From Escherichia phage ukendt, in sequence record NC_052661.1: 64,000 nt of DNA, one strand, 5' to 3'. A program made the position numbers and the translations under genes. The notes under the pieces were generated by a model. It was given only the letters and a program-made list of their open reading frames with translations. It was not told the DNA's origin and did not search any database. Shown here piece by piece: positions 26,523-39,749 of the stretch (position 1 is its first letter; every line of letters begins with the position of its first letter).

Positions 26523-26535
26523 CAAAGGAGAAACT

Positions 26536-26715: not shown

Positions 26716-27254
26716 GAATAACTGATGAATATGTATTCTTCTTTTCACATAAAGATGTGTTTAGTAATTGGTATATTGCACCCTTTACAGAAACTGAACC
26801 AGGTTACAATGAGACTTTCTGTTGTGTTGAGCAATATATGATGTGGCGTAAGGCTTTGCTGTTCAAGGATCATGCGATTGCAGCAGCTATCCTTGATCAC
26901 TCAACTATACGTGACAACGAGAGGAAACAAGCATACTACAAACGTATGGGTCGAGCGGTATCTGGTTTTAATAATGATATGTGGGAAGAGAACCGTGAGC
27001 GTATTGTTATGCGAGGCTTATGCTTGAAATATGTACAGAATCCAGATTTGTATGCAGACTTACACCTTTACCAATACAAAACGTTTGTTGAAGCAAGCCC
27101 CTACGATAAGGTTTACGGAATTGGAATGGGGATGTATGAACCAGGGGTGCTAAACCCTGCTACCTGGAAAGGGCAGAATCTTTTAGGCAAATATCATAAT
27201 AAACTGATCGAAATACTCTTCCAAGACAAAATACCGCAAAGACGATATTTGTGA
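26712..27254 (+). CDS. NADAR (YbiA-like) domain protein
   Basis: 180 aa; FFFSHKDVFSNWY...CCVEQYMMWRKA matches the NADAR signature. Confidence 0.6.
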   Translation: MRITDEYVFFFSHKDVFSNWYIAPFTETEPGYNETFCCVEQYMMWRKALLFKDHAIAAAILDHSTIRDNERKQAYYKRMGRAVSGFNNDMWEENRERIVMRGLCLKYVQNPDLYADLHLYQYKTFVEASPYDKVYGIGMGMYEPGVLNPATWKGQNLLGKYHNKLIEILFQDKIPQRRYL

Positions 27255-28328: not shown

Positions 28329-28437
28329 GGTATCGCCCTTTCTTTGATGTGCGCCCTGGTTGGCGCGGTAGAAAGATGATAGCCCTTTCTTTTATATATA
28401 GCAAGCAAAAAGAAAATAAAAAAGATTGAAAAAGTGA

Positions 28438-28496
28438 TTGACGTTCGCCAGGTGGCGGCATAATATTTACCACGTAGGGCGGCAATGGTGCCGCTC
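28438..28496 (+). promoter_or_regulatory. cassette promoter + 5' hairpin module
   Basis: TTGACG, 17 nt, TAATAT, then ACGTAGGGCGGCAATGGTGCCGCTCA hairpin. Confidence 0.55.
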
Positions 28497-28515
28497 ATTA
28501 TTTGGAGTTAAAATC

Positions 28516-28713
28516 ATGGCAACATTGCACATTGTGGCGAAAGCTGGACAAATAAACGTGGTAGTAAACGGTTTTACTGAGTTCAGTCATCCCCAGGATG
28601 ATCATGAAACGGTTTTATCTTTCATTGATTCACTGTTAGAAATGGGAGTAATTACAGAAGACCAGCACGCTACAAAATGCAAACGCGTTAATCAGATTGC
28701 AGGAATAGAATAA
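28516..28713 (+). CDS. cassette small protein
   Basis: 65 aa; own promoter-hairpin module; GGAG RBS. Confidence 0.5.
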   Translation: MATLHIVAKAGQINVVVNGFTEFSHPQDDHETVLSFIDSLLEMGVITEDQHATKCKRVNQIAGIE

Positions 28714-28720
28714 AAAGTAT

Positions 28721-28783
28721 TGACAACAACCAACAACCTGATAAGATGTATCACATAGGGCGGCGGAATGGTCCAGCCGCTCA
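28721..28783 (+). promoter_or_regulatory. cassette promoter + 5' hairpin module
   Basis: TTGACA, 16 nt, TAAGAT, then ACATAGGGCGGCGGAATGGTCCAGCCGC hairpin. Confidence 0.55.
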
Positions 28784-28805
28784 CAACAGAAGAGAGATTA
28801 TAATC

Positions 28806-29078
28806 ATGGCATCATATAGCGCAACAATGATCGTAGCTGGCACCACTGGTAAACCTATGAGCGGTGGCGGATCTTTCGCAAATATCAACATTGACGGGCG
28901 TTTATCCCTGGACGCAGCGATCACCGTGGCGCGGGAAACATTTAAGAAAGAATGTAAATTCAATAAACAAGATTATCTCGGTTTTGCTATTGAAAAAACC
29001 GCGCGTTTTGTTGATTATAAAAGCCCAAAAATGGTTGATACTACACTAAAAGCGCAAGATGTAGCGTTTTTGCTTTAA
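28806..29078 (+). CDS. cassette small protein
   Basis: 90 aa; promoter-hairpin module; start refined to 28806. Confidence 0.5.
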   Translation: MASYSATMIVAGTTGKPMSGGGSFANINIDGRLSLDAAITVARETFKKECKFNKQDYLGFAIEKTARFVDYKSPKMVDTTLKAQDVAFLL

Positions 29079-29082
29079 GGTT

Positions 29083-29136
29083 TGACATTAACGAATAATT
29101 TGTTAATATGTTACATAAAGCGGGAATAGTTCCCGC
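29083..29136 (+). promoter_or_regulatory. cassette promoter + 5' hairpin module
   Basis: TTGACA, 16 nt, TAATAT, then GCGGGAATAGTTCCCGC hairpin. Confidence 0.55.
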
Positions 29137-29154
29137 TATTTGTAAGGTGGTAGA

Positions 29155-29412
29155 ATGTTTTACATCAAATTAAAAGGTCACGTGATCGCGTTCAAGGATA
29201 ACGCTTTTTACAGATTAGCAAAGTATGCGTTAATACATCCCCATTATGTTTATATAAGGGGGCGTGATGAAATAAATATTTTTGATCAAACAACATGCGA
29301 GAACATCGAGATCCGCAAGGTTGGCGTACGTGACTATCGTACATCTTTCTACCCTTGCAAGGATTCAGCAAGTCTTTTTAAAGTATGCCGATTGTTGAAA
29401 AAAGGTGGTTAA
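29155..29412 (+). CDS. cassette small protein
   Basis: 85 aa; promoter-hairpin module. Confidence 0.5.
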   Translation: MFYIKLKGHVIAFKDNAFYRLAKYALIHPHYVYIRGRDEINIFDQTTCENIEIRKVGVRDYRTSFYPCKDSASLFKVCRLLKKGG

Positions 29413-29413
29413 T

Positions 29414-29971
29414 ATGGGCCGCGAATATGTGATCCAGTCTTGGGTAAAACATGAAGCAGATGATCCGCGCATCATTCCTGATTATCTTGTCGATGAATCC
29501 ACGGGCTATAGCGGGGAGCAAATAGGTAACAGATTAGCACGTAGTAACGGCAACGTAAAAGCGCGTTATGTGCGCCCTGGTTGGCTGGCAAATGGTAACG
29601 CTGATTTATCCAGTGCGGAAGATGCGAGCGACGGCGCGAAAGATAATCCCTTGTACAAAGTTGATCCGGCTTTTCGTGTCCTGGATGAATACCCCAACAA
29701 GATAGCGGCGCTTGATGAAGCACTAGAAAGTAAGCGCATCACCTGGACCGCTTACAACATGGCAAAAAACGTACTTGATGGTAAACTGATTCAAGCGGAG
29801 AGAAAATTAGCCAAAATTGCAGCCATAGCCCAGGAGGAAGACGAGGAGACAACGGAAGAGGAAGAGTACGAAGAGATCCCGCCGTTGTTGTGTGTTGATG
29901 CTTTTCCTGATTATCAGCCGACAGAGGAAGAAAAAAGGATCGCCCTAGAAAACTTTGAAAATAGTCTTTGA
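29414..29971 (+). CDS. cassette protein with highly acidic C-terminus
   Basis: 186 aa; EEDEETTEEEEYEE tail; co-transcribed with preceding gene. Confidence 0.5.
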   Translation: MGREYVIQSWVKHEADDPRIIPDYLVDESTGYSGEQIGNRLARSNGNVKARYVRPGWLANGNADLSSAEDASDGAKDNPLYKVDPAFRVLDEYPNKIAALDEALESKRITWTAYNMAKNVLDGKLIQAERKLAKIAAIAQEEDEETTEEEEYEEIPPLLCVDAFPDYQPTEEEKRIALENFENSL

Positions 29972-30026
29972 CATATCGCCGCCACTAGCATAATATTTAC
30001 CACGTAGGGCGGCAATGGTGCCGCTC
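29968..30026 (+). promoter_or_regulatory. cassette promoter + 5' hairpin module
   Basis: TTGACA, 17 nt, TAATAT, then GCGGCAATGGTGCCGC hairpin. Confidence 0.55.
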
Positions 30027-30053
30027 ATAGTGAAATTATACAAGAGGCTTACA

Positions 30054-30149
30054 ATGATTAATAAAGAAAATAGCTTGACGGTTGGAACGATTAACGGTAT
30101 CATTCTAGCCGTTCCATTTTGGATTGTAGTAGCGGTTATTATTTTCTAA
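30054..30149 (+). CDS. cassette hydrophobic peptide
   Basis: 31 aa; own promoter-hairpin module. Confidence 0.35.
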   Translation: MINKENSLTVGTINGIILAVPFWIVVAVIIF

Positions 30150-30157
30150 AAATATTC

Positions 30158-30218
30158 TTGACAACGTTTTTTAATCTGATAAGATGTATCACATAGGGCG
30201 GCGGAATACTTCCCCGCC
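30158..30218 (+). promoter_or_regulatory. cassette promoter + 5' hairpin module
   Basis: TTGACA, 16 nt, TAAGAT, then GGGCGGCGGAATACTTCCCCGCC hairpin. Confidence 0.55.
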
Positions 30219-30239
30219 AAAACAAAAAAGGGTAACACA

Positions 30240-30602
30240 ATGAGCAAGCAAATCAATACTATCATGTTTAATCTGGTATCTTTCCGCGATGATATGAAAA
30301 ATTTACCACGTGAAACGGTTGATATTCATGTTTCAGCTTATCGCGCCCTTATTGACATGTTACCGCTAAAACGTGATCAACATGCCGCTAATATGATGCT
30401 TAATGCTATGCTTAAAAAGATGATTCAAACGGATCTTACTCTGGCATATGAGTATCAAGGGCGCTTATATGCAACTTACAACAAGGCGGTACCTGGTCTG
30501 GGAAGTACCGAAGAGTTGCACGGCTTAAACCTGGATCAAAACACTTGGGATAGTATGCGCCGCGTTATGGTATGGGCCGAAAGCGGTAAAATTTACGAAT
30601 AA
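30240..30602 (+). CDS. cassette small protein
   Basis: 120 aa; promoter-hairpin module. Confidence 0.5.
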   Translation: MSKQINTIMFNLVSFRDDMKNLPRETVDIHVSAYRALIDMLPLKRDQHAANMMLNAMLKKMIQTDLTLAYEYQGRLYATYNKAVPGLGSTEELHGLNLDQNTWDSMRRVMVWAESGKIYE

Positions 30603-30608
30603 AAACGG

Positions 30609-30668
30609 TTGACACTGTTTAAACTTCTGGTATAGTTTACCACATAGGGCGGGAAGTGGTTTCCCGCC
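30609..30668 (+). promoter_or_regulatory. cassette promoter + 5' hairpin module
   Basis: TTGACA, about 17 nt, TATAGT, then GGCGGGAAGTGGTTTCCCGCC hairpin. Confidence 0.55.
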
Positions 30669-30690
30669 AACAATTAAAAAGGTTATCATC

Positions 30691-31056
30691 ATGGCTATTA
30701 ATATTAATGTTTCCTCTTATGCTACCCTGGCTGACACGGCTAAAATTGAATTATCCAGCATTGAGGCGGTGCATATTAGCGCCCGTCGCTGGTTTCAACA
30801 GTCCTACGGTAACACATATTTTTCTTTAATGGTTGACGTTGAGATCGGCGGTAAACTGATCGAGGTGGTTAACGTTCCGTTTCAATATGGTTATGGTGAT
30901 CATTTTGATACCGTCGCCCTGGAAGAATTTAGCAAGGTCGTTAATATGGAAGGTAAAGAGTTTTCACGCGGCGCGTATCTTTCCCGTTTTTGCCGTGACA
31001 ATGGGATCACTGTATACAGTCATGCAAGCGATGTTAAACGTAAAAAAGATCTATAA
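30691..31056 (+). CDS. cassette small protein
   Basis: 121 aa; promoter-hairpin module. Confidence 0.5.
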   Translation: MAININVSSYATLADTAKIELSSIEAVHISARRWFQQSYGNTYFSLMVDVEIGGKLIEVVNVPFQYGYGDHFDTVALEEFSKVVNMEGKEFSRGAYLSRFCRDNGITVYSHASDVKRKKDL

Positions 31057-31063
31057 AAAGCAT

Positions 31064-31121
31064 TGACAGCACGAATAAAAAGAGTAAACTGTATTACATA
31101 GAGAGCGGGAACACTTCCCGC
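31064..31121 (+). promoter_or_regulatory. cassette promoter + 5' hairpin module
   Basis: TTGACA, 16 nt, TAAACT, then GCGGGAACACTTCCCGC hairpin. Confidence 0.55.
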
Positions 31122-31145
31122 CTCACTGAAAAAGAGAGAAAAATC

Positions 31146-31385
31146 ATGGCTAAATCTAAAATGTACAACGGTCACAAAAACAAAACTCATTGGAATGTAA
31201 GCCTTTGGATTAATAACGATGAATCATTGTATCGGTTTGCATTGGGATTGATCAATGAGTGCGGTAATAAAGATCAGGCGGCTGATTTAATGTGCTACCG
31301 TTTGAAACAGGATGGAATCACTACAACGCCAGACGGCTTTAAGTATAGTAAAACTGCAATCCGCGCCGCTATGGTTGGAATGTAA
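31146..31385 (+). CDS. cassette small protein
   Basis: 79 aa; promoter-hairpin module. Confidence 0.5.
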   Translation: MAKSKMYNGHKNKTHWNVSLWINNDESLYRFALGLINECGNKDQAADLMCYRLKQDGITTTPDGFKYSKTAIRAAMVGM

Positions 31386-31394
31386 TAAAAACAG

Positions 31395-31454
31395 TTGACA
31401 ACGTTTAAAATTAGTGTAAGATGTATCACATAGGGCGGGAAGTGGTTTCCCGCC
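31395..31454 (+). promoter_or_regulatory. cassette promoter + 5' hairpin module
   Basis: TTGACA, 16 nt, TAAGAT, then GGCGGGAAGTGGTTTCCCGCC hairpin. Confidence 0.55.
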
Positions 31455-31476
31455 AACAACAGAGAGATTAAAGATT

Positions 31477-31704
31477 ATGGCTATCAATATTGTTCGTGTA
31501 TCCGGCACCGTTGGCAGTTCCCAGGTTGTAGCAGTTATCACAGAGAAGAAAGGGGATGATCTTCACTCTTCCTTGAATAGCTGGGCGGTCGCTAACTTCG
31601 GGCAATGGTCGAGCGTTGAGTACATCGAATCCTACCAGGTGCCGACGATTAGCCTAACCGATCTCAACGTTGATCGCTTGTTGTGCCTGGATGAATTAAT
31701 CTGA
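31477..31704 (+). CDS. cassette small protein
   Basis: 75 aa; promoter-hairpin module. Confidence 0.5.
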   Translation: MAINIVRVSGTVGSSQVVAVITEKKGDDLHSSLNSWAVANFGQWSSVEYIESYQVPTISLTDLNVDRLLCLDELI

Positions 31705-31714
31705 AAAAAGATTG

Positions 31715-31772
31715 TTGACACCGGAAAGAAAAAGAGTAGAATATATTACATAGGGCGGCAATGGTGCCGCTC
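31715..31772 (+). promoter_or_regulatory. cassette promoter + 5' hairpin module
   Basis: TTGACA, 16 nt, TAGAAT, then GCGGCAATGGTGCCGC hairpin. Confidence 0.55.
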
Positions 31773-31795
31773 ACAACAGAAGAGAGATTATCACG

Positions 31796-32011
31796 ATGGC
31801 TAATATCCGCACTTTACTGAAAAATGCAAGTCAAGTTTTATTTTCAGATGACGAGTATTTCAATAAAGACATTACAGGCGTGAAAAATTTAAAAGACGTG
31901 AAGGATGTTATCGGTATTCGTGGATCTTTACGTAAAGGTGATTACTATGGTAACAAGGTGCAATATAAACTGTCAAAGGATTACAATTTTACTTTGACAA
32001 TTATTTCATAA
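31796..32011 (+). CDS. cassette small protein
   Basis: 71 aa; promoter-hairpin module. Confidence 0.5.
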   Translation: MANIRTLLKNASQVLFSDDEYFNKDITGVKNLKDVKDVIGIRGSLRKGDYYGNKVQYKLSKDYNFTLTIIS

Positions 32012-32017
32012 AACCGC

Positions 32018-32077
32018 TTGCAATACTGCAAAAATAAAGTAAACTATATTCATCAAGGCGGGGAATGGTCCGCCGCC
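32018..32077 (+). promoter_or_regulatory. cassette promoter + 5' hairpin module
   Basis: TTGCAA, 16 nt, TAAACT, then GGCGGGGAATGGTCCGCCGCC hairpin. Confidence 0.5.
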
Positions 32078-32101
32078 TAACAAAGAGAAGAGGAAAACAT
32101 C

Positions 32102-32275
32102 ATGATCACTTTCGCTACCCGTGAAGCCGCTCGCAACGTTGCACGTAAAGTTAACGCCGCCAACCTGGGCGCTACACTTAAAGCCCCGGTGAAAGATGAA
32201 TCAGGCAAATGGATCTTCCCTGGTCTGCGTCATGCTGACAAGTTAGGTACTTTAAGCCTTAAAAATAATCGTTGA
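32102..32275 (+). CDS. cassette small protein
   Basis: 57 aa ORF not in track; promoter-hairpin module. Confidence 0.4.
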   Translation: MITFATREAARNVARKVNAANLGATLKAPVKDESGKWIFPGLRHADKLGTLSLKNNR

Positions 32276-32309
32276 CTTTTCGTTATAGCGCCTTACAATG
32301 GGCGCTATA
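32272..32309 (+). promoter_or_regulatory. variant cassette promoter with palindrome across the -10
   Basis: TTGACT, 16 nt, TACAAT, embedded in TATAGCGCC...GGCGCTATA inverted repeat. Confidence 0.45.
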
Positions 32310-32342
32310 GAGAAGAGAAACCACTATTAACAAGGAAACATC

Positions 32343-32564
32343 ATGATTACTTTTGCTATTGTCGCCGTTGTTGCTGGTCAGGTTTACGTAAATGATACAT
32401 TCACCACAGAAGACAAGGCAGCAGGAGACATCACCGCCGCTTATAATGAGTGCAAGGCAGTAGAAAGGATGTTAGCGCCTTGTATGCTAATGAGTGAACG
32501 CCAGGACGGAATAACAGTATTTACTAACATTGAAACAGGGTACCAAATGGTAGTAACAAAATAA
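32343..32564 (+). CDS. cassette small protein
   Basis: 73 aa; variant promoter with palindrome. Confidence 0.5.
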   Translation: MITFAIVAVVAGQVYVNDTFTTEDKAAGDITAAYNECKAVERMLAPCMLMSERQDGITVFTNIETGYQMVVTK

Positions 32565-32567
32565 AGC

Positions 32568-32624
32568 TTGACACCGATTTAATTTTTAGTAAACTGTTAC
32601 ACGTAGGGCGGGAATAGTTCCCGC
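32568..32624 (+). promoter_or_regulatory. cassette promoter + 5' hairpin module
   Basis: TTGACA, 16 nt, TAAACT, then GCGGGAATAGTTCCCGC hairpin. Confidence 0.55.
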
Positions 32625-32643
32625 TCAAAAAGAGAGAAAGACC

Positions 32644-32997
32644 ATGAAAGCACAAAATGCAATTAAAGAGTACATCCTTGCCGCTATCGATTTTAATGAT
32701 TACGGTATTACAACCGAAAAAGAGAAGATCGCGGAATTGATGCGCCGTTTTAATTCCGAGTACTGGTACCCTGATAACCAATCACGTTTTAATTATAGTA
32801 TTGTTAAAGCACTTGCATCATGGTTACAAGGCTTGCCATCAGATATCAATATCGCTTTCGAATATTGGGAAATTGATCGCCTGTTAACATCCTGGGGATA
32901 CATTAAAGAGAATAGCAGCGATGATAAAATCCAACGAGAAAGGGAAAATTATTGGCTTTATATTGCAGGCGTGATCCTTGCTTGCTCTTATGAATGA
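32644..32997 (+). CDS. cassette small protein
   Basis: 117 aa; promoter-hairpin module. Confidence 0.5.
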   Translation: MKAQNAIKEYILAAIDFNDYGITTEKEKIAELMRRFNSEYWYPDNQSRFNYSIVKALASWLQGLPSDINIAFEYWEIDRLLTSWGYIKENSSDDKIQRERENYWLYIAGVILACSYE

Positions 32998-33003
32998 TAA
33001 ACC

Positions 33004-33058
33004 TTGACAATTTTACAAAACAGTTTAAATTAACAATATAGCGGCAATGGTGCCGCTC
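33004..33058 (+). promoter_or_regulatory. cassette promoter + 5' hairpin module
   Basis: TTGACA, A/T-rich -10 region, then GCGGCAATGGTGCCGC hairpin. Confidence 0.5.
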
Positions 33059-33076
33059 ATATGAAGAGGAAACAAA

Positions 33077-33223
33077 ATGAATACATCTAATCGCGCAGAA
33101 AAAATTCAATCTTCCAAGATCCGCAAGGCCTGGAACGAGGAAGTGATCCGCAAAGGCGACAAGCGCAATAAAACAAAGCGCGGGAAGAGTGACAAATATA
33201 ATTGGATGGATTTAGAGGATTAA
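33077..33223 (+). CDS. cassette small basic protein
   Basis: 48 aa Lys/Arg-rich; promoter-hairpin module; followed by terminator. Confidence 0.4.
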   Translation: MNTSNRAEKIQSSKIRKAWNEEVIRKGDKRNKTKRGKSDKYNWMDLED

Positions 33224-33230
33224 CATAACA

Positions 33231-33257
33231 AGGGCGCATCAAGCGCCCTTTCTTTTT
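33231..33257 (+). terminator. rho-independent terminator inside the cassette array
   Basis: AGGGCGC-ATCAA-GCGCCCT followed by TTCTTTTT. Confidence 0.6.
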
Positions 33258-33278
33258 ACATGTAGAGGATAAACAAAA

Positions 33279-33464
33279 ATGATTTTAAACGAGCTTAAAA
33301 CAGCCTACAACGCAACATTAAAAATAGCCGTGCGTTACCGTGATGCGTACGGTTTTATCGCGCAGGGCGTGATCCTGGGCTTTTCTGACGATGGTTTGAT
33401 CTATGTTGATGCACATCACAACAAGGTTAAACCGGAAAACGTTATCAATATAAAATATCTTTAA
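33279..33464 (+). CDS. cassette small protein
   Basis: 61 aa; RBS GAGGA. Confidence 0.45.
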   Translation: MILNELKTAYNATLKIAVRYRDAYGFIAQGVILGFSDDGLIYVDAHHNKVKPENVINIKYL

Positions 33465-33470
33465 AAGTGG

Positions 33471-33527
33471 TTGACACCATAACCGGACCTGTTAAACTGT
33501 ATTACATCAGGCGGGGAATAGTTCCCC
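33471..33527 (+). promoter_or_regulatory. cassette promoter + 5' hairpin module
   Basis: TTGACA, 16 nt, TAAACT, then GGGGAATAGTTCCCC hairpin. Confidence 0.55.
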
Positions 33528-33550
33528 CACCATACAAAAAGGTAAATATT

Positions 33551-33757
33551 ATGATCACCGCAAAACAAGAAAAAATCATTATCGACGTTGCAGCCGTTGC
33601 CGCTATTGCTATTATTGGATCTTATTATGATACCCGTTTCCCGTCGGCTATGCATGAGATCGCCGCCGTTGCATCAGTCGGCGTGCTGTTTTACGTTGGT
33701 AAACGCTATTTATCACCAATGATTAACAAGCTGACACCGTGGAAAAATAAAGGTTGA
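33551..33757 (+). CDS. cassette small membrane protein
   Basis: 68 aa; promoter-hairpin module; start refined to 33551. Confidence 0.5.
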   Translation: MITAKQEKIIIDVAAVAAIAIIGSYYDTRFPSAMHEIAAVASVGVLFYVGKRYLSPMINKLTPWKNKG

Positions 33758-33810
33758 TCCTGTTTTATATTGTGTTATAGTTATCGTGTAGGGCGGCAAT
33801 GGTGCCGCGC
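33754..33810 (+). promoter_or_regulatory. cassette promoter + 5' hairpin module
   Basis: TTGATC, 16 nt, TATAGT, then GCGGCAATGGTGCCGC hairpin. Confidence 0.5.
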
Positions 33811-33829
33811 CCCCTTTGAGGATGAAATC

Positions 33830-34114
33830 ATGAGTAAAGCTAACACCGTGCTAATGTTTTCCCTGATTAATGATCCCGCTTACTTGTCCAACATGACGCA
33901 GGAGGGTAACACATTAACGGCAACATTCACCAATAAGCTTGACCGAGTGATCATCATCTCACTGAAAACAGTTAGTAAAGGCTTTTACTCGTTAGCTTAT
34001 CATTGGATCACCGATACCGATGAGACAAGCCAGGACTATAGCGCCCCTTTCCCTGAATCAATGGCACGGGAGATCATCGCCGCCGTTGTAAATGATGGTT
34101 TGTTTACTGCATAA
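33830..34114 (+). CDS. cassette small protein
   Basis: 94 aa; shares 25-nt initiation region with gene at 24955. Confidence 0.5.
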   Translation: MSKANTVLMFSLINDPAYLSNMTQEGNTLTATFTNKLDRVIIISLKTVSKGFYSLAYHWITDTDETSQDYSAPFPESMAREIIAAVVNDGLFTA

Positions 34115-34131
34115 ATAATTTAGAAAAAGGC

Positions 34132-34188
34132 TTGCAATCATTTTGAGATAGTGTATATTTAATTCATAGGGCGGCGGGAATAGTTCCC
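34132..34188 (+). promoter_or_regulatory. cassette promoter + 5' hairpin module
   Basis: TTGCAA, 16 nt, TATATT, then GGGAATAGTTCCC hairpin. Confidence 0.5.
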
Positions 34189-34211
34189 AAAGCAAACGAG
34201 AGGATTACACG

Positions 34212-34330
34212 ATGAGCAAGTACACAGTAGAATACACGGTAGAAAATCCGGCAGTATCCGAAGGTAAAAAGATGACATTTGCCATCAGTATAATCGCTTT
34301 CGTTGTCACTATCTTATCAATCATCTTATA
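34212..34330 (+). CDS. cassette hydrophobic peptide
   Basis: 39 aa with C-terminal TM segment; promoter-hairpin module. Confidence 0.35.
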
Positions 34331-34341
34331 AGGTGCACACC

Positions 34342-34503
34342 ATGAAAACAACAGATATTATCAAAGAGATCGCCCTTGCCGCTGGCGTTGAGATCGAGGA
34401 AGTGATCGCGCTCAATCTTACAGAAAACGATCTGCGCAACTATGAAGCGGAAAGCGTGAAAGCAAGCGGTGCGATCCTGGCATATAATCCGGCTAACAAG
34501 TAA
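34342..34503 (+). CDS. cassette small protein
   Basis: 53 aa ORF. Confidence 0.35.
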   Translation: MKTTDIIKEIALAAGVEIEEVIALNLTENDLRNYEAESVKASGAILAYNPANK

Positions 34504-34512
34504 GGGGATAAC

Positions 34513-34623
34513 ATGAATCCGAAAGATATGCAAGCATGGAAAGGGTACGACGATCTGAGCGCCTTGCGTAATAAGTCCAGCCGTAACCTTAGACGATTGC
34601 AAGCAAAGAAAAAGAAAAAATAG
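34513..34623 (+). CDS. cassette small basic protein
   Basis: 36 aa ending KKKKK. Confidence 0.3.
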   Translation: MNPKDMQAWKGYDDLSALRNKSSRNLRRLQAKKKKK

Positions 34624-34624
34624 T

Positions 34625-34682
34625 TTGACAAGTCCGCTTAATCTGATAATATGTATCTTGTAGGGCGGCAATGGTGCCGCTC
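34625..34682 (+). promoter_or_regulatory. cassette promoter + 5' hairpin module
   Basis: TTGACA, 16 nt, TAATAT, then GCGGCAATGGTGCCGC hairpin. Confidence 0.55.
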
Positions 34683-34701
34683 ACAAGAAGAGAGAAAAAT
34701 C

Positions 34702-34986
34702 ATGAAAATCACAAAAAGCCTAACTAATTATGCAGCACGTCGCGGATTATGTTTAACCGTTGAAAACTTAGGGAAAGAAGACTTTTTGTGTTTTTGGGAG
34801 CTTGAAAACGATTGCGAGTGGATGTTTTCCTATTCTATCTGCGAAGATCAAAACGGTTGTTTGTTAACCTGGCGCGGTAATATTTATTTACCGGAAGAAA
34901 TTAAAGAGGAATTACCAGGTACGATCATGACAGAGAGACAGCTTAAGGAAATGATTAATTTTGTAGGGCAAAACATTAAAAAATAA
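34702..34986 (+). CDS. cassette small protein
   Basis: 94 aa; promoter-hairpin module. Confidence 0.5.
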   Translation: MKITKSLTNYAARRGLCLTVENLGKEDFLCFWELENDCEWMFSYSICEDQNGCLLTWRGNIYLPEEIKEELPGTIMTERQLKEMINFVGQNIKK

Positions 34987-34987
34987 T

Positions 34988-35050
34988 TTGACAGCACGCA
35001 AACAACGTAGTAAAGTTTACCACATAGGGCGGCGGAATGGTCCACCGCTC
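34988..35050 (+). promoter_or_regulatory. cassette promoter + 5' hairpin module
   Basis: TTGACA, 17 nt, TAAAGT, then GGGCGGCGGAATGGTCCACCGC hairpin. Confidence 0.55.
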
Positions 35051-35071
35051 ACAACAGAAGAGAAACAAATC

Positions 35072-35242
35072 ATGATCCCGACTATGTTTTATGTATCGCG
35101 CAAAGGTCACAATATTTTTTGGTCTGAAGATTTAAATGAAGCCATGACGTTTGCCCGTGATCGTGTTGCTATCGGTGGCGTTAACATCACCGTAACCGAT
35201 GAAAATGGCATTGAATACTATAACGGCGACGATGAAGAGTAA
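35072..35242 (+). CDS. cassette small protein
   Basis: 56 aa; promoter-hairpin module. Confidence 0.45.
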   Translation: MIPTMFYVSRKGHNIFWSEDLNEAMTFARDRVAIGGVNITVTDENGIEYYNGDDEE

Positions 35243-35249
35243 TTAATGA

Positions 35250-35267
35250 GGCGGGGAGTACCCCGCC
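35250..35267 (+). promoter_or_regulatory. cassette-type GC hairpin without recognisable -35/-10
   Basis: GGCGGGGAGTACCCCGCC, 20 nt upstream of the ATG at 35287. Confidence 0.4.
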
Positions 35268-35286
35268 GTCAATAAAGAGGTAAATC

Positions 35287-35556
35287 ATGAAAATATCATT
35301 GGACGTTGCAATCAAGGCCATCGAATCCGGTTACATCCTGGTAAAAGATGATAAGGCTAAAATAGTGCATCATGTTAACAAGGAAACAGGCGAGAGCATG
35401 ATCACATATAAAGCCGCCTACTTTCTCCAATCAGTAGCAGATCCGCGCGTACAACGCCAGGTTACAGCGGCTATTGCTAAAAAATTATGTGCTTTACAGG
35501 GTGCAAGTTTTAACGAGATTGCCCCGTGTTTTGAGTGGTCAAGCTTGAAAAAATAA
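35287..35556 (+). CDS. cassette small protein
   Basis: 89 aa; preceded by GC hairpin only. Confidence 0.5.
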   Translation: MKISLDVAIKAIESGYILVKDDKAKIVHHVNKETGESMITYKAAYFLQSVADPRVQRQVTAAIAKKLCALQGASFNEIAPCFEWSSLKK

Positions 35557-35557
35557 T

Positions 35558-35619
35558 TTGACAACAATTATAAATCGGGTAGAATGTATTTCGTAGGGCG
35601 GGGCAATAAGGCAACGCCC
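35558..35619 (+). promoter_or_regulatory. cassette promoter + 5' hairpin module
   Basis: TTGACA, 16 nt, TAGAAT, then GGGCG...CGCCC hairpin. Confidence 0.5.
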
Positions 35620-35634
35620 ATTAATGAGGGTAGA

Positions 35635-35742
35635 ATGATGTTAGAGAAAATTTTCACGGTTGTAATAGTGGGCCTGGCGTTATCGGTTGGAGTGGTTGCA
35701 ACTATGGCTAACATGATCCTATCTTCCCACGGTATCGGCTAA
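35635..35742 (+). CDS. cassette hydrophobic peptide
   Basis: 35 aa single TM; promoter-hairpin module. Confidence 0.35.
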   Translation: MMLEKIFTVVIVGLALSVGVVATMANMILSSHGIG

Positions 35743-35752
35743 GGTGAAACAA

Positions 35753-35968
35753 ATGATCACGAATAAGACAGGTAAAACGGAATTTTTACGCGGCTTGCAA
35801 GTTGGTAAACCTGAGATCTGGCATTGTACTAAATCCGCGCATAATGAAATGAAAGATTTTACCGCTACTTTACAACGTGTTAAAATATCTATCACACAGA
35901 AAAAAGCCTTGTTAGTAGTAGAAAACGAGATCCCGCAAACTATTATTATTGTCGAGCGTACAGCATGA
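35753..35968 (+). CDS. cassette small protein
   Basis: Start refined to ATG 35753. Confidence 0.45.
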   Translation: MITNKTGKTEFLRGLQVGKPEIWHCTKSAHNEMKDFTATLQRVKISITQKKALLVVENEIPQTIIIVERTA

Positions 35969-36351
35969 AAACAGAAATCATTATTGAAATCATCAACGGT
36001 TATAAAGAAGCCTTTATTTTTGCTGAATCAGCAAGGGATCATGAAGGTAATTTTATTGAAAACTTAGACGATTATGATTTTTCTCCTAGCGCGGACGAAC
36101 GGATCGCCCAGGATGTAACAGCCTTTATTAATGCTAATCTTGCCGCTATCTCTGAGGCAATGAGCGACGGCGCAACAGCCAACCAGATCGGGAATGATTT
36201 ACATTTTACCCGTAACGGTCACGGCGTAGGCTTTTGGGATCGCCCTGAAATATACACCACTAACACGGCGAACCGCCTAACCAATGCAGCTAAGTTTATG
36301 CCGAACGTGTCGGCTTACATTGGTGAAGATAATTTGATTTATATTGAATAA
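35965..36351 (+). CDS. cassette small protein
   Basis: 128 aa; translationally coupled. Confidence 0.5.
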   Translation: MKTEIIIEIINGYKEAFIFAESARDHEGNFIENLDDYDFSPSADERIAQDVTAFINANLAAISEAMSDGATANQIGNDLHFTRNGHGVGFWDRPEIYTTNTANRLTNAAKFMPNVSAYIGEDNLIYIE

Positions 36352-36357
36352 AAAGTA

Positions 36358-36415
36358 TTGACACAGATCGCCAGTGTGCTAATATTTACCACGTAGGGCG
36401 GCAATGGTGCCGCCG
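36358..36415 (+). promoter_or_regulatory. cassette promoter + 5' hairpin module
   Basis: TTGACA, 16 nt, TAATAT, then GGCGGCAATGGTGCCGCC hairpin. Confidence 0.55.
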
Positions 36416-36432
36416 ATAATGAGGAAAGTAAA

Positions 36433-36732
36433 ATGGAAACTATCGCTATTGTTACCGTAGAAAAACTGGTTGTTGGTGATGTATTCGCGTTAATGGTGCC
36501 TAACAGCAGCAAGCTGGGCGCTTATGAAGTAATGGATCATAAAAATGAATCATTTGGCGACGGTTGCACAATGGCGGTAAAATCTTTAAAGGATGGAATT
36601 ATCCGCCAGGCTAACTGGCACAAAGGGAATCAAGTCGGTTTAATATCAGCTAATTTCTTGCCAGAAGAGCAAACGTTAGACCAACTATCAGGCGGTAAGA
36701 CGTTAGCCGAACTACTGGAAACAGCGATCTAA
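36433..36732 (+). CDS. cassette small protein
   Basis: 99 aa; promoter-hairpin module. Confidence 0.5.
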   Translation: METIAIVTVEKLVVGDVFALMVPNSSKLGAYEVMDHKNESFGDGCTMAVKSLKDGIIRQANWHKGNQVGLISANFLPEEQTLDQLSGGKTLAELLETAI

Positions 36733-36739
36733 TCGACAA

Positions 36740-36755
36740 GGGGCGGCAACGCCCC
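36740..36755 (+). promoter_or_regulatory. cassette-type GC hairpin without recognisable promoter
   Basis: GGGGCGGCAACGCCCC between stop at 36732 and ATG at 36786. Confidence 0.35.
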
Positions 36756-36785
36756 CATTAAACGCAATAGGAAGAGGATAGACAC

Positions 36786-37076
36786 ATGAAAAAGATGATC
36801 GCAGTAGTTGCCCTGGTTGTTGGTATTAACGCGCCTGTAATGGCGAAAGAGTTGCCAGAATCCATCACGTTAACCGATATCAACGCAATAAACCGGATCG
36901 GCGTTAATTATCGCCTATGCCTTGCCGCTAAAACTTTCCAGGACGGCACAACAGAGTACTACGGATTCGAGGGTACCCGCTGCGGTGAGCTTGCACGCGA
37001 CCTTAAGGAAGATCCAGACCTTGAGGCCATACCGATGACCGTAAACGGTAAAGCTTACGTAAACCGCCAACAATGA
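36786..37076 (+). CDS. cassette secreted protein
   Basis: 96 aa; signal peptide MKKMIAVVALVVGINAPVMA. Confidence 0.5.
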   Translation: MKKMIAVVALVVGINAPVMAKELPESITLTDINAINRIGVNYRLCLAAKTFQDGTTEYYGFEGTRCGELARDLKEDPDLEAIPMTVNGKAYVNRQQ

Positions 37077-37207
37077 GAAAGGTAATCATCACAATGGGGA
37101 TCGTAGTAGCAACGCTGGCGCTTATCCCCTTCATGGTTGAACATGTGCTGATCAGTGTTGTCCTTGTAGTCAGTGACCTATTGGAAACGGTTGGCACCTG
37201 GTTTTAA
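37073..37207 (+). CDS. cassette hydrophobic peptide
   Basis: 44 aa ORF overlapping upstream stop (ATGA). Confidence 0.35.
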   Translation: MRKVIITMGIVVATLALIPFMVEHVLISVVLVVSDLLETVGTWF

Positions 37208-37381
37208 GATAATAAATAGGGCTTGCAATAGTCCTATTTTTTGTTATACTTATTGAACGGGCGGCACCTGGGAGCAGGGGAAGATAATCACCGGAAGACC
37301 CCGCTATATATTGATAACTAACGCCTATCAAACAACAAAACATCAAAGGAACAAACTATCAAATCTTTACAATTCTACCTA

Positions 37382-37410
37382 TTGACACCGGATCACGCTT
37401 ACATTATTAT
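37382..37410 (+). promoter_or_regulatory. sigma70-like promoter with degenerate hairpin
   Basis: TTGACA, 17 nt, TATTAT, then ACGTAGGGC without the complementary arm. Confidence 0.45.
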
Positions 37411-37456
37411 TTATCACGTAGGGCAAATCATTTTAAACGGTAAACGAGGAATCACC

Positions 37457-37840
37457 ATGAGCAATATCATCAACCTGGCAGCGACTGTAAACGGTAAAGA
37501 CTTTAACGGCGCTGTAGACCGTGATCCTATGTGGTGCTTGTCAGTGTTTAAAGGTGACTTGGTTGAAGTTAGAACAACCGAAGGGTATAGCGATGATTAT
37601 AAATGCGAGATCCATTTACATAACTGGTACACGGGTAAAACTTATGCGCTGAATCATGCGTTTATCGGCAAGGTTGAATATAGAGAAATGATCGACGATG
37701 AAACGGGGCAGGATTTTAGCGAAAACGTTTATATTCGTTCCGAGACATTAGCCGAACGTTTGATCGAGAAAATGAAAGCAAAAAATAAAATTAATTTATC
37801 TCATTGGATTGATATAACAAACGATCCAGCTTATCAGTAA
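37457..37840 (+). CDS. cassette protein
   Basis: 127 aa; promoter without hairpin; followed by terminator. Confidence 0.5.
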   Translation: MSNIINLAATVNGKDFNGAVDRDPMWCLSVFKGDLVEVRTTEGYSDDYKCEIHLHNWYTGKTYALNHAFIGKVEYREMIDDETGQDFSENVYIRSETLAERLIEKMKAKNKINLSHWIDITNDPAYQ

Positions 37841-37855
37841 ATAACATTTCATACC

Positions 37856-37882
37856 AGGGCGCACAAAGCGCCCTTTCTTTTT
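37856..37882 (+). terminator. rho-independent terminator at the right end of the cassette array
   Basis: AGGGCGC-ACAAA-GCGCCCT followed by TTCTTTTT; near-identical to the terminator at 33231. Confidence 0.6.
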
Positions 37883-38019
37883 GCCCGAACAATGTTGATA
37901 GCTTTCGCCTATGAAAAACCGACACAGAACAAAACTGAATAAATCACGGTATCAAGCTAATCGACCATTAAACGAATAACCATACATCCCAGGGCAACAG
38001 GCTGTTAGAGAGCTATTTA

Positions 38020-38360
38020 GAGCGGTTAAAATCGATCAACAACCAACAACAAACCATCAAAAACACCCTTTTACCTCCTTTCTAGTGCAATGATAACCAT
38101 TATCATCTACCCATGATTATCTATGCAATATAAGCGCATAATTATAATGTTGATAATAGTTCGCAACAACTAACCAACAAACAACATAAAACAATAAGCA
38201 AACTAATCATAATCAAAGGAATAATAGCAAGATGATTGATAACGACAAACAATCAAACCATGATGAATACTAAGCAAAACAACGATAACACGACAAAACA
38301 ACCAACTAACGAACAATAACAAACGAAACCATTAAAATAACAACTATTAGCAAAATAGTG
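38020..38360. repeat. A+C-rich low-complexity tract with AAC/CAA repeats
   Basis: Long runs such as CAACAACCAACAACAAACCATCAAAAACACCC with almost no G on the plus strand and no ORF. Confidence 0.55.
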
Positions 38361-38489
38361 CCTAAATGAAATCATTACAAAACGAATCATTCACAGGATC
38401 ATCATTAGCACGCTATGCCGGACACATAGCGAGCTAATAATAAGCCAACTACACCCCAACAATCATAACCATCGGTGACGGTTATTTCT

Positions 38490-38520
38490 TGTTACTGCGT
38501 AGCTTGCAATAATTGCAAGC
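38490..38520. repeat. perfect palindrome CTTGCAATAATTGCAAG
   Basis: 17-bp inverted repeat within the non-coding region. Confidence 0.45.
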
Positions 38521-38843
38521 GTAATGACGCTTACACTTATTGCGCTGGCTTATTATTAGCATTATATGTAATTACCAAGATCATAACATTAGCGCAATAA
38601 CAATAATCATTGTGGTAATTACAAGATGAAATCATTAGCAAGATGAATAATTGCACGTAGCAACATGAGCGAATAGCGACAGGTTGCATAGTGTGCACAT
38701 AGTGTATAAACATACAAGAAAATAAAGGCTAATCTTTTGGGGGCGAATACTATCGCGTAGCGATATGTTGAGCACCTTCTCTTAAACGTAAATAAAATCA
38801 GAAAATTCTTGATTTATTTTAGTTTTTATGTTAATAAACGTTT

Positions 38844-38864
38844 AAATAATAATCATTCTCATAT
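38844..38864. promoter_or_regulatory. Fur-box-like operator (site C)
   Basis: AAATAATAATCATTCTCATAT shares the core AATCATTCTCAT with sites B and D. Confidence 0.4.
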
Positions 38865-39002
38865 AAATAATAGTCTGCTTGTCATGAGCGGGATTAGTTG
38901 ACAATGTTCCGTCATATGATGAAGTTGCCAAACCATTGATAAATAAGTGTTTGTGTGATTTATAATCAAGTGGCCCACCTTGTCGCTATGTTGGCATGAG
39001 CC

Positions 39003-39044
39003 TTGCATAAGTCATTGAATACGAATGATAATTATTCTCATTCG
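39003..39044 (+). promoter_or_regulatory. promoter with Fur-box-like operator across the -10 (site D)
   Basis: TTGCAT, 17 nt, TGATAAT; palindrome CGAATGATAATTATTCTCATTCG. Confidence 0.5.
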
Positions 39045-39374
39045 CATGATATTTGGGAATTGTCGCTGCGTGGACCTGACGGCCCGAAAATTCGCGTTAA
39101 GCACTTCTTACGTATGCGCCATGATTTTTGCCATATGATATTGATTCTATTAGATATTCTTGCCATGAAACAAGGTGTGTCGAAATAATCTCTCCCCGTA
39201 GATATTTTGGGTTACTTTTTATACAAGAGTGGGGTGTCAAAAATAATCGGTATATATGGGATAATTGATAGGAATCCCCTATGGTAATTCGATTGTAATT
39301 CCTTAAGATTGATCGTATGATGTTGGTGATTGATGATTGCCATGAAAGATGGCTAACGATGAGAGGAGATTGTC

Positions 39375-39749
39375 ATGCAAGAGAGTAAAAATATTCCGTT
39401 GAGTAGTGCAACATTGCTTCGCTTCTATAAAGCATGGATTGCCAACTATCCTGCAATGAATCGCACAACGAGTGGCTTATGTGGTTGTCTGGTAGATTAT
39501 GTAGATGATTTTGTTGGTGAGACAACTAGAGAAGAAGATAGAAGATGGCGTGATCATTTGTTGGACCGTTTGAAATATGAAATGAGGAAACAATTTACAT
39601 GTGCAGGGCTGGACTACAATCTTCCGTTCAATGCAGATTGCATGGATTACCTTTCAGAGTGTATAAACTTGGCGTGTCATACCAACACGTTACGTCTTCA
39701 ATGGGTGAAAGATCGGATTGAAGATGCAAATAATGCTTGCATTGAATAA
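39375..39749 (+). CDS. family A paralog (WVKDR motif)
   Basis: 124 aa; GLCxxL...LPF...RLQWVKDRI shared with four other ORFs. Confidence 0.55.
   Translation: MQESKNIPLSSATLLRFYKAWIANYPAMNRTTSGLCGCLVDYVDDFVGETTREEDRRWRDHLLDRLKYEMRKQFTCAGLDYNLPFNADCMDYLSECINLACHTNTLRLQWVKDRIEDANNACIE

Follow-up and report, generated by a model that had tools for sequence, protein, structure and literature searches.

Clusters of host-takeover or pre-early genes lie near genome termini in several phages, as in the SPO1 terminal-redundancy module, the T5 pre-early region and the Kayvirus terminal repeat genes. A hairpin that stabilises an mRNA from its 5' end must lie within 2-4 nucleotides (nt) of the end of the transcript. 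Stabilising 5'-terminal stem-loops have been reported for the ompA and papA mRNAs of Escherichia coli (Emory 1992; Bouvet and Belasco 1992; Bricker and Belasco 1999; references 92-95 of PMC3997798). The promoter early stem-loops (PeSLs) of T4-type phages carry a stem-loop that is reported to sit upstream of the promoter and to terminate transcription (PMC4122927, PMC2839356). The paper on phage rV5 only lists promoters. This work concerns an array of small genes at 28438-37884 in a stretch of 64,000 nt from Escherichia phage ukendt (NC_052661.1). The whole 64-kb stretch is referred to as the window. A promoter and a hairpin are repeated together in this array as a module in front of 19 genes.

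The region 28400-37900 matched 267 phage records by megablast. The top match is Escherichia phage KKP 3954 (Stephanstirmvirinae, Phapecoctavirus) with 96% identity across the full query. The rest of the window matches the same Phapecoctavirus group at 96-98%. By these matches, the source of the array is a phAPEC8-type 150-kb virulent myovirus of E. coli, and the closest records agree with the sequence-only reading of this DNA that the phage is not T4-like. The array is best explained, with a probability of about 0.7, as the early accessory-gene region ("host-takeover" type) of a phAPEC8-like myovirus, arranged as a row of self-contained expression cassettes that are shuffled through the module.

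Organisation of the array

The 30 genes that were called between 28516 and 37840 are all on the plus strand and encode proteins of 31-185 amino acids (aa), so the earlier estimate of about 26 small genes was too low. The 19 small plus-strand genes that had been placed behind the same promoter and hairpin module were confirmed gene by gene (g1, g2, g3, g5-g11, g13, g14, g16, g17, g18, g21, g22, g24, and g27). The three variant sites are also all present, namely the palindrome-embedded promoter at 32272 and the hairpin-only sites at 35250 and 36740. There are 19 promoter-plus-hairpin modules and 2 promoter-only variants, and the intergenic gaps are 67-97 nt long. Genes g4, g19, g20, g25, g26, and g29 are translationally coupled to the preceding gene. 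The features of the array are as follows, where each promoter is given as its -35 hexamer, spacer length in nt and -10 hexamer.

28438-37884, plus strand: whole array; 30 genes in about 24 expression units, 78% coding, with an intrinsic terminator at the end
28438-28713, plus strand: Unit 1; TTGACG-17-TAATAT, hairpin 28477-28496, g1 of 65 aa (28516-28713)
28720-29078, plus strand: Unit 2; TTGACA-16-TAAGAT, hairpin 28758-28782, g2 of 90 aa
29082-29971, plus strand: Unit 3; TTGACA-16-TAATAT, hairpin 29119-29137, g3 of 85 aa and translationally coupled g4 of 185 aa, which has an acidic C-terminus and a stop codon within the -35 hexamer of Unit 4
29968-30149, plus strand: Unit 4; TTGACA-17-TAATAT, hairpin core 30007-30026, g5 of 31 aa, hydrophobic
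30158-30602, plus strand: Unit 5; TTGACA-16-TAAGAT, hairpin 30197-30218, g6 of 120 aa with homologues in rV5-like and jumbo phages
30609-31056, plus strand: Unit 6; TTGACA-16-TATAGT, hairpin 30648-30668, g7 of 121 aa; the module is a hybrid relative to phage Mt1B1_P17
31063-31385, plus strand: Unit 7; TTGACA-16-TAAACT, hairpin 31101-31124 (core and loop GAGAGCGGGAACACTTCCCGC), g8 of 79 aa, DUF7249
31395-31704, plus strand: Unit 8; TTGACA-16-TAAGAT, hairpin 31434-31454, g9 of 75 aa
31715-32011, plus strand: Unit 9; TTGACA-16-TAGAAT, hairpin 31753-31772, g10 of 71 aa, missing in phage nieznany with a hybrid module at the junction
32018-32275, plus strand: Unit 10; variant TTGCAA-16-TAAACT, hairpin 32056-32078, g11 of 57 aa
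32272-32564, plus strand: Unit 11; TTGACT-16-TACAAT with the -10 inside a 24-nt palindrome (32285-32308), no 5' hairpin, g12 of 73 aa
32568-32997, plus strand: Unit 12; TTGACA-16-TAAACT, hairpin 32606-32626, g13 of 117 aa
33004-33223, plus strand: Unit 13; TTGACA-16-TAAATT, hairpin core 33040-33057, g14 of 48 aa, Pfam Phage_1_1 (T7 gene 1.1 family)
33230-33258, plus strand: terminator 1, intrinsic; 8-bp GC stem and T-run, 90% identical to terminator 3
33279-33464, plus strand: g15 of 61 aa, without a module, downstream of terminator 1
33471-33757, plus strand: Unit 15; TTGACA-16-TAAACT, weaker hairpin 33510-33531, g16 of 68 aa, membrane-like
33754-34114, plus strand: Unit 16; TTGATC-16-TATAGT with the -35 overlapping the g16 stop codon, hairpin 33791-33811, g17 of 94 aa
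34132-34623, plus strand: Unit 17; TTGCAA-16-TATATT, degenerate hairpin 34171-34193, coupled g18 of 39 aa (membrane), g19 of 53 aa and g20 of 36 aa (basic)
34625-34986, plus strand: Unit 18; TTGACA-16-TAATAT, hairpin core 34663-34682, g21 of 94 aa
34988-35242, plus strand: Unit 19; TTGACA-17-TAAAGT, hairpin 35027-35050, g22 of 56 aa
35250-35556, plus strand: Unit 20; hairpin only (35250-35267), no promoter, g23 of 89 aa
35558-36351, plus strand: Unit 21; TTGACA-16-TAGAAT, hairpin 35596-35619, coupled g24 of 34 aa (membrane), g25 of 71 aa and g26 of 128 aa
36358-36732, plus strand: Unit 22; TTGACA-16-TAATAT, hairpin 36397-36414, g27 of 99 aa
36740-37207, plus strand: Unit 23; hairpin only (36740-36755), g28 of 96 aa with a signal-peptide-like N-terminus and overlapping g29 of 44 aa (membrane)
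37214-37245, plus strand: terminator-like hairpin and T-run after g29; relatives carry insertions of 200-525 bp here
37382-37840, plus strand: Unit 24; TTGACA-17-TATTAT, start region CACGTAGGGC kept, no hairpin, g30 of 127 aa, Pfam Phage_30_8 (T4 gp30.8 family)
37856-37884, plus strand: terminator 3, intrinsic; end of the array

The repeated module

The exact sequence TAGGGCGG occurs in 14 copies in the window, all on the plus strand and all between 28475 and 36401, and no copy was found in the other 86 kb of the closest genome. The longer pattern TTGACA-N15-19-TANNNT-N5-12-TAGGGCGG has 11 matches, where shuffled sequence gives an expectation of 0.00. A repeat search independently recovered the module in families of 6-10 copies.

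The -35 hexamer is TTGACA in 14 of the 19 copies and is followed by a spacer of 16-17 nt whose sequence is not conserved. The -10 hexamer is TAnnnT in all 19 copies and TG-extended in eight. The modules with TTGACA score 10-11 of 12 matches to the promoter hexamers and those with variant -35 forms score 8-9. The -35 begins 0-10 nt past the preceding stop codon (17 nt for g18), overlaps it twice, and has an A-rich tract just upstream. A conserved (G/T)TA(T/C)CAC(A/G)TA follows the -10, and the GC stem comes next. In 19 of 19 copies, the start of the stem core is 9-11 nt beyond the -10, and the distance from the end of the stem to the ATG is 14-23 nt. A conserved purine-rich leader had also been proposed. 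The leader is purine-rich in all copies; the full CACAACAGAAGAGAGATTA is present in a few of them only and the others have related purine-rich leaders.

The first 3-5 codons are also common to some unrelated genes. The neighbouring genes g11 and g12 both start with MITFA (32102-32116 and 32343-32357), and g7 and g9 both start with MAINI (30691-30708 and 31477-31491). The tract of homology that is available for recombination therefore extends past the ATG. In phage Mt1B1_P17 (locus L002, 2879-2993) and at the same place in locus L005, about 115 nt of GC-rich leader take the place of the simple g1 hairpin, with the same promoter and the same Shine-Dalgarno sequence on either side.

Outside the array, the window holds one solitary module.

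6676-6751, minus strand: solitary module; TTGACA-16-TAAGAT, ATATCACAT, hairpin GCGGGGAATAGTTCCCCGC and purine-rich leader, upstream of a TerC-family gene (6675-5701)

This gene encodes a TerC-family membrane protein of 324 aa within a block annotated in relatives as TelA/TerD-like tellurite-resistance genes. The module is therefore not confined to tiny open reading frames (ORFs). A host origin of the module was dropped since there is no match in 5,426 complete E. coli genomes. A pattern scan of IMG/VR returned multi-copy matches only in phAPEC8-like contigs of about 150 kb, and about 35 single matches, which by our own estimate is about the chance level for a 17-base pattern.

Structure of the hairpin and its possible roles

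In the predicted minimum-free-energy folds, 19 of 19 leaders have a hairpin in the same position and an unpaired Shine-Dalgarno sequence and AUG. The free energy of the leaders is -11 to -17 kcal/mol except for g18, and the z-score is below -3 in 13 of the 19. The claim of a GC hairpin in every module holds for the 19 copies, with the qualification that the g18 copy is degenerate (-7.8 kcal/mol, z = -0.7). We collected 55 distinct promoter-proximal hairpins across 10 loci and all of them pair. They have stems of 6-11 bp, loops of 3-8 nt, a total length of 17-25 nt, and bulges. The stem cores include GGCGGCA/TGCCGCC, GGCGGGAA/TTCCCGCC, GGGGCG/CGCCCC, and GGGGCAA/TTGCCCC, the loops vary (AUGG, UAG, GUGGU, CAC, UAC), and the 23 G.U pairs always have G on the 5' arm. 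In these predicted folds it is the structure and not one sequence that is kept. If transcription starts at the conserved CA/CG located 7-8 nt after the -10, which is the predicted start, about 2-4 unpaired nt precede the hairpin. Rfam and tRNA scans returned no matches.

Only one of the 19 modules passes a scan for a hairpin plus T-run, and the other 18 hairpins run into A/C-rich sequence. Canonical terminators are found at just three points of the array (33230-33258, 37214-37245, and 37856-37884). By the lack of T-runs, the module hairpins are not intrinsic terminators. The opposite assignment, in which the hairpins are terminators or attenuators that isolate each cassette as in T4-type PeSLs, has been made in GenBank record MZ726793 of phage ASO2A, where hairpins are annotated as "rho-independent terminator" (WebGeSTer and TransTermHP), and PeSL stem-loops are reported to terminate effectively (PMC2839356). 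We regard this assignment as very improbable for the array. Termination at the hairpin would cut short the transcript of the very cassette to which it belongs, since the hairpin comes after that cassette's -10, and the short distance between stop codon and -35 given above leaves no space for an upstream terminator.

Since there are three terminators only, the array would be transcribed as a small number of long units with several promoters each, and the majority of the hairpins would also be intercistronic in read-through RNA. The hairpin sites without a promoter (35250, 36740, and others in relatives) argue for a role of the hairpin that is independent of the promoter. The 30-nt copies at 33228-33257 and 37853-37882, which belong to the two strongest intrinsic terminators, are 90% identical. 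The terminators are therefore reiterated units in the array too.

Several points limit the case for a hairpin that acts as RNA. The strand asymmetry is weak, with a better fold on the plus strand for 27 hairpins and on the reverse complement for 14, and C.A mismatches in some hairpin types would become G.U pairs on the opposite strand. Single-substitution variants fall in stems in 9 of 23 cases against 12.7 expected, so avoidance of stems is not clear; 7 of the 9 disrupt pairing, for the most part at the outermost positions. No consensus structure was obtained with RNAalifold from the 19 modules aligned by MAFFT because the stems are out of register. An alignment of the hairpins only was centred on the loops; it placed odd- and even-length hairpins in different registers and was not used for covariance. 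Hairpin types may also be swapped as blocks, and their diversity would therefore not be independent compensatory evolution. Lastly, the 5'-terminal position of the hairpin is deduced from the usual spacing between -10 and start.

These points bear on another explanation, in which a protein binds at the inverted repeat (about +3 to +25) or at TAGGGCGG. The site would be a DNA operator for a repressor of a phage early-to-middle switch, or an RNA hairpin recognised by a regulator or nuclease of the phage. The bound factor would time or shut off all cassettes together, with mRNA protection secondary or absent. The strand and substitution tests do not establish structure at the RNA level. TAGGGCGG is the best-conserved 8-mer of the module with its 14 exact copies while the promoter spacer is not conserved, and TAGGGC is retained in the g30 module (37382) that has no hairpin, both in the window and in phage phi92. 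A site that overlaps +1 is also the classic position of a repressor. We nevertheless consider a protein-binding site unlikely. The variable spacing of the arms, with the hairpin and loop lengths and bulges described above, is a poor fit for a dimeric operator, and the unconserved loops argue against a loop-reading RNA-binding protein like lambda N with boxB. The hairpin-only sites have no promoter to regulate, and no candidate regulator was found.

Two other candidates were rejected. A lambda-type nut site (boxA plus boxB) was ruled out by the variable loops and stems and the missing Rfam match. A promoter for a T7-like RNA polymerase had been suggested by the resemblance of CACATAGGG to the T7 core CACTATAGGG and by a "PHIRE promoter" label. 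A tblastn search with T7 RNA polymerase gave a best E of 0.09 in the window and the rest of the closest genome, and the idea was rejected because no T7-like polymerase is found there.

Turnover of cassettes among relatives

The relatives compared are six Phapecoctavirus phages, phAPEC8, and phi92. The presence of the genes was determined by tblastn of the 30 proteins against the six Phapecoctavirus relatives, and gaps were taken from chained blastn. The region is not strictly conserved and syntenic in the eight relatives. Cassettes differ in presence, replacement and order and the junctions are hybrid modules, as expected from the earlier proposal that cassettes are shuffled at the repeated module. 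Among the six relatives, g6 is missing in phiWec181, g10 and g21-g26 are missing in nieznany, g23 and g25 are each missing in three phages, and g30 is found only in KKP 3954. Extra cassettes are found in relatives before g7, g12, g20, g27, and g28 and after g29. At the place of g23, Mt1B1_P17 and tuntematon have a 45-aa gene instead and the phiWec181 orthologue has a full promoter-plus-hairpin module. The site of Unit 23 holds an extra cassette in six of six close relatives with the crossover within the hairpin.

The flanking alignments overlap by 8-77 nt at many junctions, and the junction therefore lies within sequence that is repeated at both ends. By three-way alignment, the nieznany module before g11 matches the g10 module through the -10 and the g11 module onward. 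At the deletion of g21-g26, the nieznany module before g27 follows the g21 module as far as the hairpin and the g27 module from there on. Two copies of one hairpin flank the extra cassettes before g27 and g28, and the extra cassettes before g7 and g12 have the crossover in the leader or the first codons. Of the 18 non-redundant events in a manual tally of the chained-blastn gaps, about 11 involve a module and about 8 have both breakpoints in modules. The modules make up about 20% of the region, so about 4% of events are expected to have both breakpoints in them. The comparison of these sequences supports a hyperplastic accessory region in a non-T4-like phage where cassettes turn over by recombination at the repeated module.

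The varied crossover positions fit general homologous recombination on short identical tracts and not a site-specific enzyme. The hairpins could otherwise be the sites of a dedicated site-specific recombinase, similar to integron attC, with cassettes cut out and inserted as circles at a fixed point. Imperfect GC-rich palindromes do flank single-gene cassettes here, and PeSL mini-circles were detected in RB49 and phi1 (PMC2839356). This explanation is extremely improbable, as the crossovers are spread over the -10, hairpin, leader, and first codons, the cassettes bring their own promoters unlike integron cassettes, and the hairpins have no conserved attC-like core. There is no integrase-like domain among the neighbouring genes that were scanned, and the remaining genome was not scanned protein by protein.

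Some events speak against recombination at the module. Gene-precise indels occur within coupled operons at g19/g20 and g24/g26, after g5, and after g8, all without a module, and some further indels sit at terminators. Surviving phages are also a selected sample in which breakpoints that preserve expression would be enriched even without any preference of recombination. Both points would be accounted for if the module were a mere consensus of early promoter and leader, with turnover by illegitimate or microhomology events anywhere and selection keeping the junctions between genes. We consider this quite improbable. The hybrid modules join halves of two different parental modules, with 15-77 nt of sequence in common at the crossover, and in the tally given above the share of events with both breakpoints in modules exceeds the expected one. 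The array genes are also dispensable because each is absent from some relative, and selection against breakpoints within genes should therefore be weak.

Sharing of modules across genera and families

Phage phi92 (genus Justusliebigvirus) has a homologous array in another order (g5, g2, g6, g3, g4, g7, and so on) with a mosaic amino-acid identity of 35% to 98% to the window. The g30 cassette is 93-95% identical to phi92 at the DNA level from the -10/TAGGGC region to the terminator. Its upstream flank is unrelated and its downstream flank about 70% identical, with the right breakpoint of the exchange at terminator 3. The g30 module of the window is a hybrid of the phi92 gp247 and gp248 modules.

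A query with a 62-nt module matched Phapecoctavirus, Justusliebigvirus, Vequintavirus (FV3, rV5-like), and a Klebsiella relative, with at most six copies in a genome. FV3 has the same layout of promoter, CACATAGGGCGG, and hairpin. DNA-level homologues of g6 are found in rV5-like phages and those of g6 and g8 in 350-kb Asteriusvirus jumbo phages. Individual array genes also have DNA-level homologues in small unrelated phages. The same layout is present in Asteriusvirus slurp01, 121Q, and others, with 5-16 copies of the Asteriusvirus module per genome, and its part from -10 to hairpin is about a 90% match to Stephanstirmvirinae genomes. In slurp01, the sequence in front of both the g6 and the g8 homologue runs TTGCAA-N17-TATAAT, GTTTTACATC, GC hairpin, leader, and ATG. 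The slurp01 hairpin before the g6 homologue (GAGAGCGGGAACACTTCCCGCT) equals the g8 hairpin of the window except for the last bases.

In slurp01 (348 kb; LT603033.1 78024-79824, which is 900-2700 of locus L015), a highly conserved AAAGTACTTGCAAACTATGTTTAANGGCGTATAATGTTTTACATC followed by a GC hairpin is located before the g6 and g8 homologues and other small genes. Three tandem repeats of about 57 bp are located just upstream of this module array (about 930-1075 of L015).

It is possible, though doubtful, that the module is a shared "plug standard" for accessory genes in otherwise unrelated lineages of large enterobacterial myoviruses (Stephanstirmvirinae, Vequintavirinae, and Asteriusvirus) that serves both as an adapter for exchange between families and as a device to tell self from non-self mRNA. 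With the same layout and, in places, near-identical hairpins, a cassette could recombine across families in co-infection and be expressed at once. The 5' hairpin could also label the early mRNAs of the phage as resistant to 5'-end-dependent decay, possibly at a time when host mRNA is degraded.

Proposed working of the array

In the preferred explanation of self-contained early cassettes, each near-consensus sigma-70 promoter would be read by the unmodified host RNA polymerase early in infection. Transcription is predicted to start at the conserved CA/CG, so that the RNA would open with (A/G)UA, continue into the GC-rich hairpin, and end its leader with an unstructured purine-rich part that holds the Shine-Dalgarno sequence and AUG. 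Without terminators between cassettes, the transcripts would continue to one of the three terminators. The hairpin may have three effects. At the 5' end it would guard the mRNA from RppH/RNase E 5'-end-dependent decay. Between cistrons it would be a 3' block for processed upstream fragments. It would also lock the GC-rich start region and leave the ribosome-binding site open whatever gene comes next.

As the comparison of relatives shows, the module of 70-90 bp serves as portable homology because it is repeated about 20 times in direct orientation. Recombination of module with module deletes, inserts, replaces, or moves whole cassettes and leaves a functional hybrid module. The same recombination trades cassettes between genera, and apparently also between unrelated phage families with the same layout.

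Cassette proteins and composition

The proteins had been described as mostly unrelated to one another. They are mutually unrelated, as 28 of the 30 each match a different PHROG family, none of them with a defined molecular function. Pfam matches were obtained for only three of the 30, namely g8 (DUF7249), g14 (T7 gene 1.1 family), and g30 (T4 gp30.8 family). There is no match for g4, g7, g26, and g30 in a PDB sequence search, and none in NCBIfam for ten cassette proteins.

The array was also said to be GC-richer with a different codon flavour, and this is seen in the numbers. The coding sequence of the array has 42% GC against 39% elsewhere, and at third codon positions the GC content is 0.43 when pooled and 0.42 as a per-gene mean, compared with 0.32 for 45 other ORFs of the window (Mann-Whitney p = 2e-8). 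Codon choice is shifted to CGC, GGC, ATC, GCG, and CCG and is markedly more E. coli-like, with more GC-ending codons, than that of the replication and structural genes of the phage. The closest genome has ten phage tRNAs. The E. coli-like codons could fit expression before phage tRNAs are available, or equally a foreign origin.

Two further sites were identified near the end of the array. The region 37064-37091 (CCGCCAACAATGAGAAAGGTAATCATCA) at the g28 3' end and g29 start is 89% identical to the post-hairpin leader of the g7 module, and from this similarity it looks like a fossil module that was absorbed into coding sequence. The region 37214-37310 has a terminator-like hairpin overlapping a TTGCAA-16-TATACT promoter, followed by a non-coding element of about 50 nt (GGGCGGCACCTGG...CCCCGC). 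Phapecoctavirus relatives conserve this element, and Vequintavirus FV3 (locus L009, 7511-7600) has it in a changed form. It is possibly a small RNA or a leader, with a weak consensus fold (11 pairs, one compensatory) and no Rfam match.

Genome context

The phi92 record has an annotated 343-bp right terminal repeat located 1.1 kb past the gp30.8-like gene of the homologous array, and the first base of two Phapecoctavirus records corresponds to about 39090 of the window. From these two positions, the array would be near a genome end. By analogy with phi92, the physical right genome end is probably within 37885-39375 and the array probably abuts it. The phi92 343-bp repeat has no alignment to the 64-kb window. 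The region 37885-39375 is about 1.5 kb long and A/C-rich, with no ORF of at least 50 aa that has a convincing start, and rV5 and FV3 have a comparable non-coding block beside their arrays.

The genes just upstream of the array (23774-27254) code for an AAA ATPase, for a protein of 402 aa that contains three CapR-homology domains, and for a protein with a NADAR domain. Since the NADAR family has been linked to the reversal of ADP-ribosylation, the last of these may provide a further counter-defence function. In the search for regulators beside the array (Srd-like or other named), the neighbouring genes scanned matched only PHROGs of unknown function. Two records named for other hosts, MG065650.1 "Campylobacter phage B15" and OP562383.1 "Acinetobacter phage vB_AbaM_ABPW7", are 95-96% identical to the array region. 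The Campylobacter and Acinetobacter host labels on such records are probably wrong or come from contaminating coliphages.

Previous annotation and implications

In the phAPEC8 record JX561091 (2012), about 11 array copies of the 20-mer [A/G]TAGGGCGGCAATGGTGCCG carry the label "putative promoter determined with PHIRE". This 20-mer is the start region plus the 5' half of the hairpin. The record also marks some sigma-70 promoters as "host dependent promoter determined with MEME". The ASO2A record MZ726793 has "promoter" followed by "rho-independent terminator", and these "terminators" are the module hairpins. By our analysis, the pieces in GenBank were annotated separately and mislabelled. No paper was found on the composite unit, its position in the 5' untranslated region, or its role in exchange, within a coverage that left out the phAPEC8 announcement (PMC3497662). 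No paper was found that links phAPEC8, phi92, or rV5 to such modules or that contains the 14-16-mer motifs. The suggestion of an independent or undescribed instance thus stands for the composite unit and not for its pieces.

The findings correct public annotation in which the hairpins are terminators and the start region is a separate phage promoter. They extend module-mediated shuffling, so far known from T4-type phages, to a second large group, that of therapeutically used coliphages (phAPEC8, phi92, and rV5 relatives), and probably to jumbo phages, in a different geometry where the repeated hairpin is part of the mRNA and not a terminator. For phage engineering, the modules offer natural landing pads and a compact, naturally reiterated expression unit. 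The about 30 dispensable and individually promoted early genes per phage, with many more across relatives, are a defined pool to screen for host-takeover or anti-defence functions.

Comparison with known systems

The array is similar to the SPO1, T5, and Kayvirus clusters in its dense tiny genes, mostly of unknown function, and its unusually strong host-type promoters in front of every gene or every few genes. It would also be similar in lying next to the physical genome end, by analogy with the phi92 terminal repeat. The array differs from those clusters as it would be beside and not inside a short terminal repeat (343 bp in phi92) and is transcribed toward the end. To our knowledge, a conserved 5' hairpin and module-mediated turnover have not been described for them.

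The module would share with the ompA and papA stem-loops a stable hairpin that is predicted about 2-4 nt from the 5' end and is followed by an accessible ribosome-binding site. It differs from them as the element is reiterated about 20 times in a portable phage module.

Among described systems T4-type PeSLs come closest to the array, and the likeness to them that had been pointed out is partial. In the PeSL reports (Arbiol et al. 2010, PMC2839356; Comeau et al. 2014, PMC4122927), a strong sigma-70-type early promoter, stem-loop, Shine-Dalgarno sequence, and ATG are reiterated before ORFan genes of small size, most copies of the motif cluster in a hyperplastic region, and close relatives differ by indels and replacements with crossovers inside the motif at varied positions (-10, loop, Shine-Dalgarno to ATG). 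The array is similar to PeSLs in the reiterated motif, the hyperplastic region and the breakpoints in the motif. In the order of parts, these reports have the hairpin and then the promoter, whereas the array has the promoter and then the hairpin. The array hairpin lacks a U-tract and cannot act like the terminator by which PeSL cassettes are isolated, and the array cassettes are not transcriptionally isolated, with three terminators for 30 genes. The stem sequences also differ, and the array phage is a member of Stephanstirmvirinae. Judged by this arrangement, the resemblance to PeSLs is functional and not structural, as one defining PeSL feature, the upstream terminator stem-loop, is not present in the array. 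The principle is known, but its geometry here, the correction of the annotation, and the sharing across families are new.

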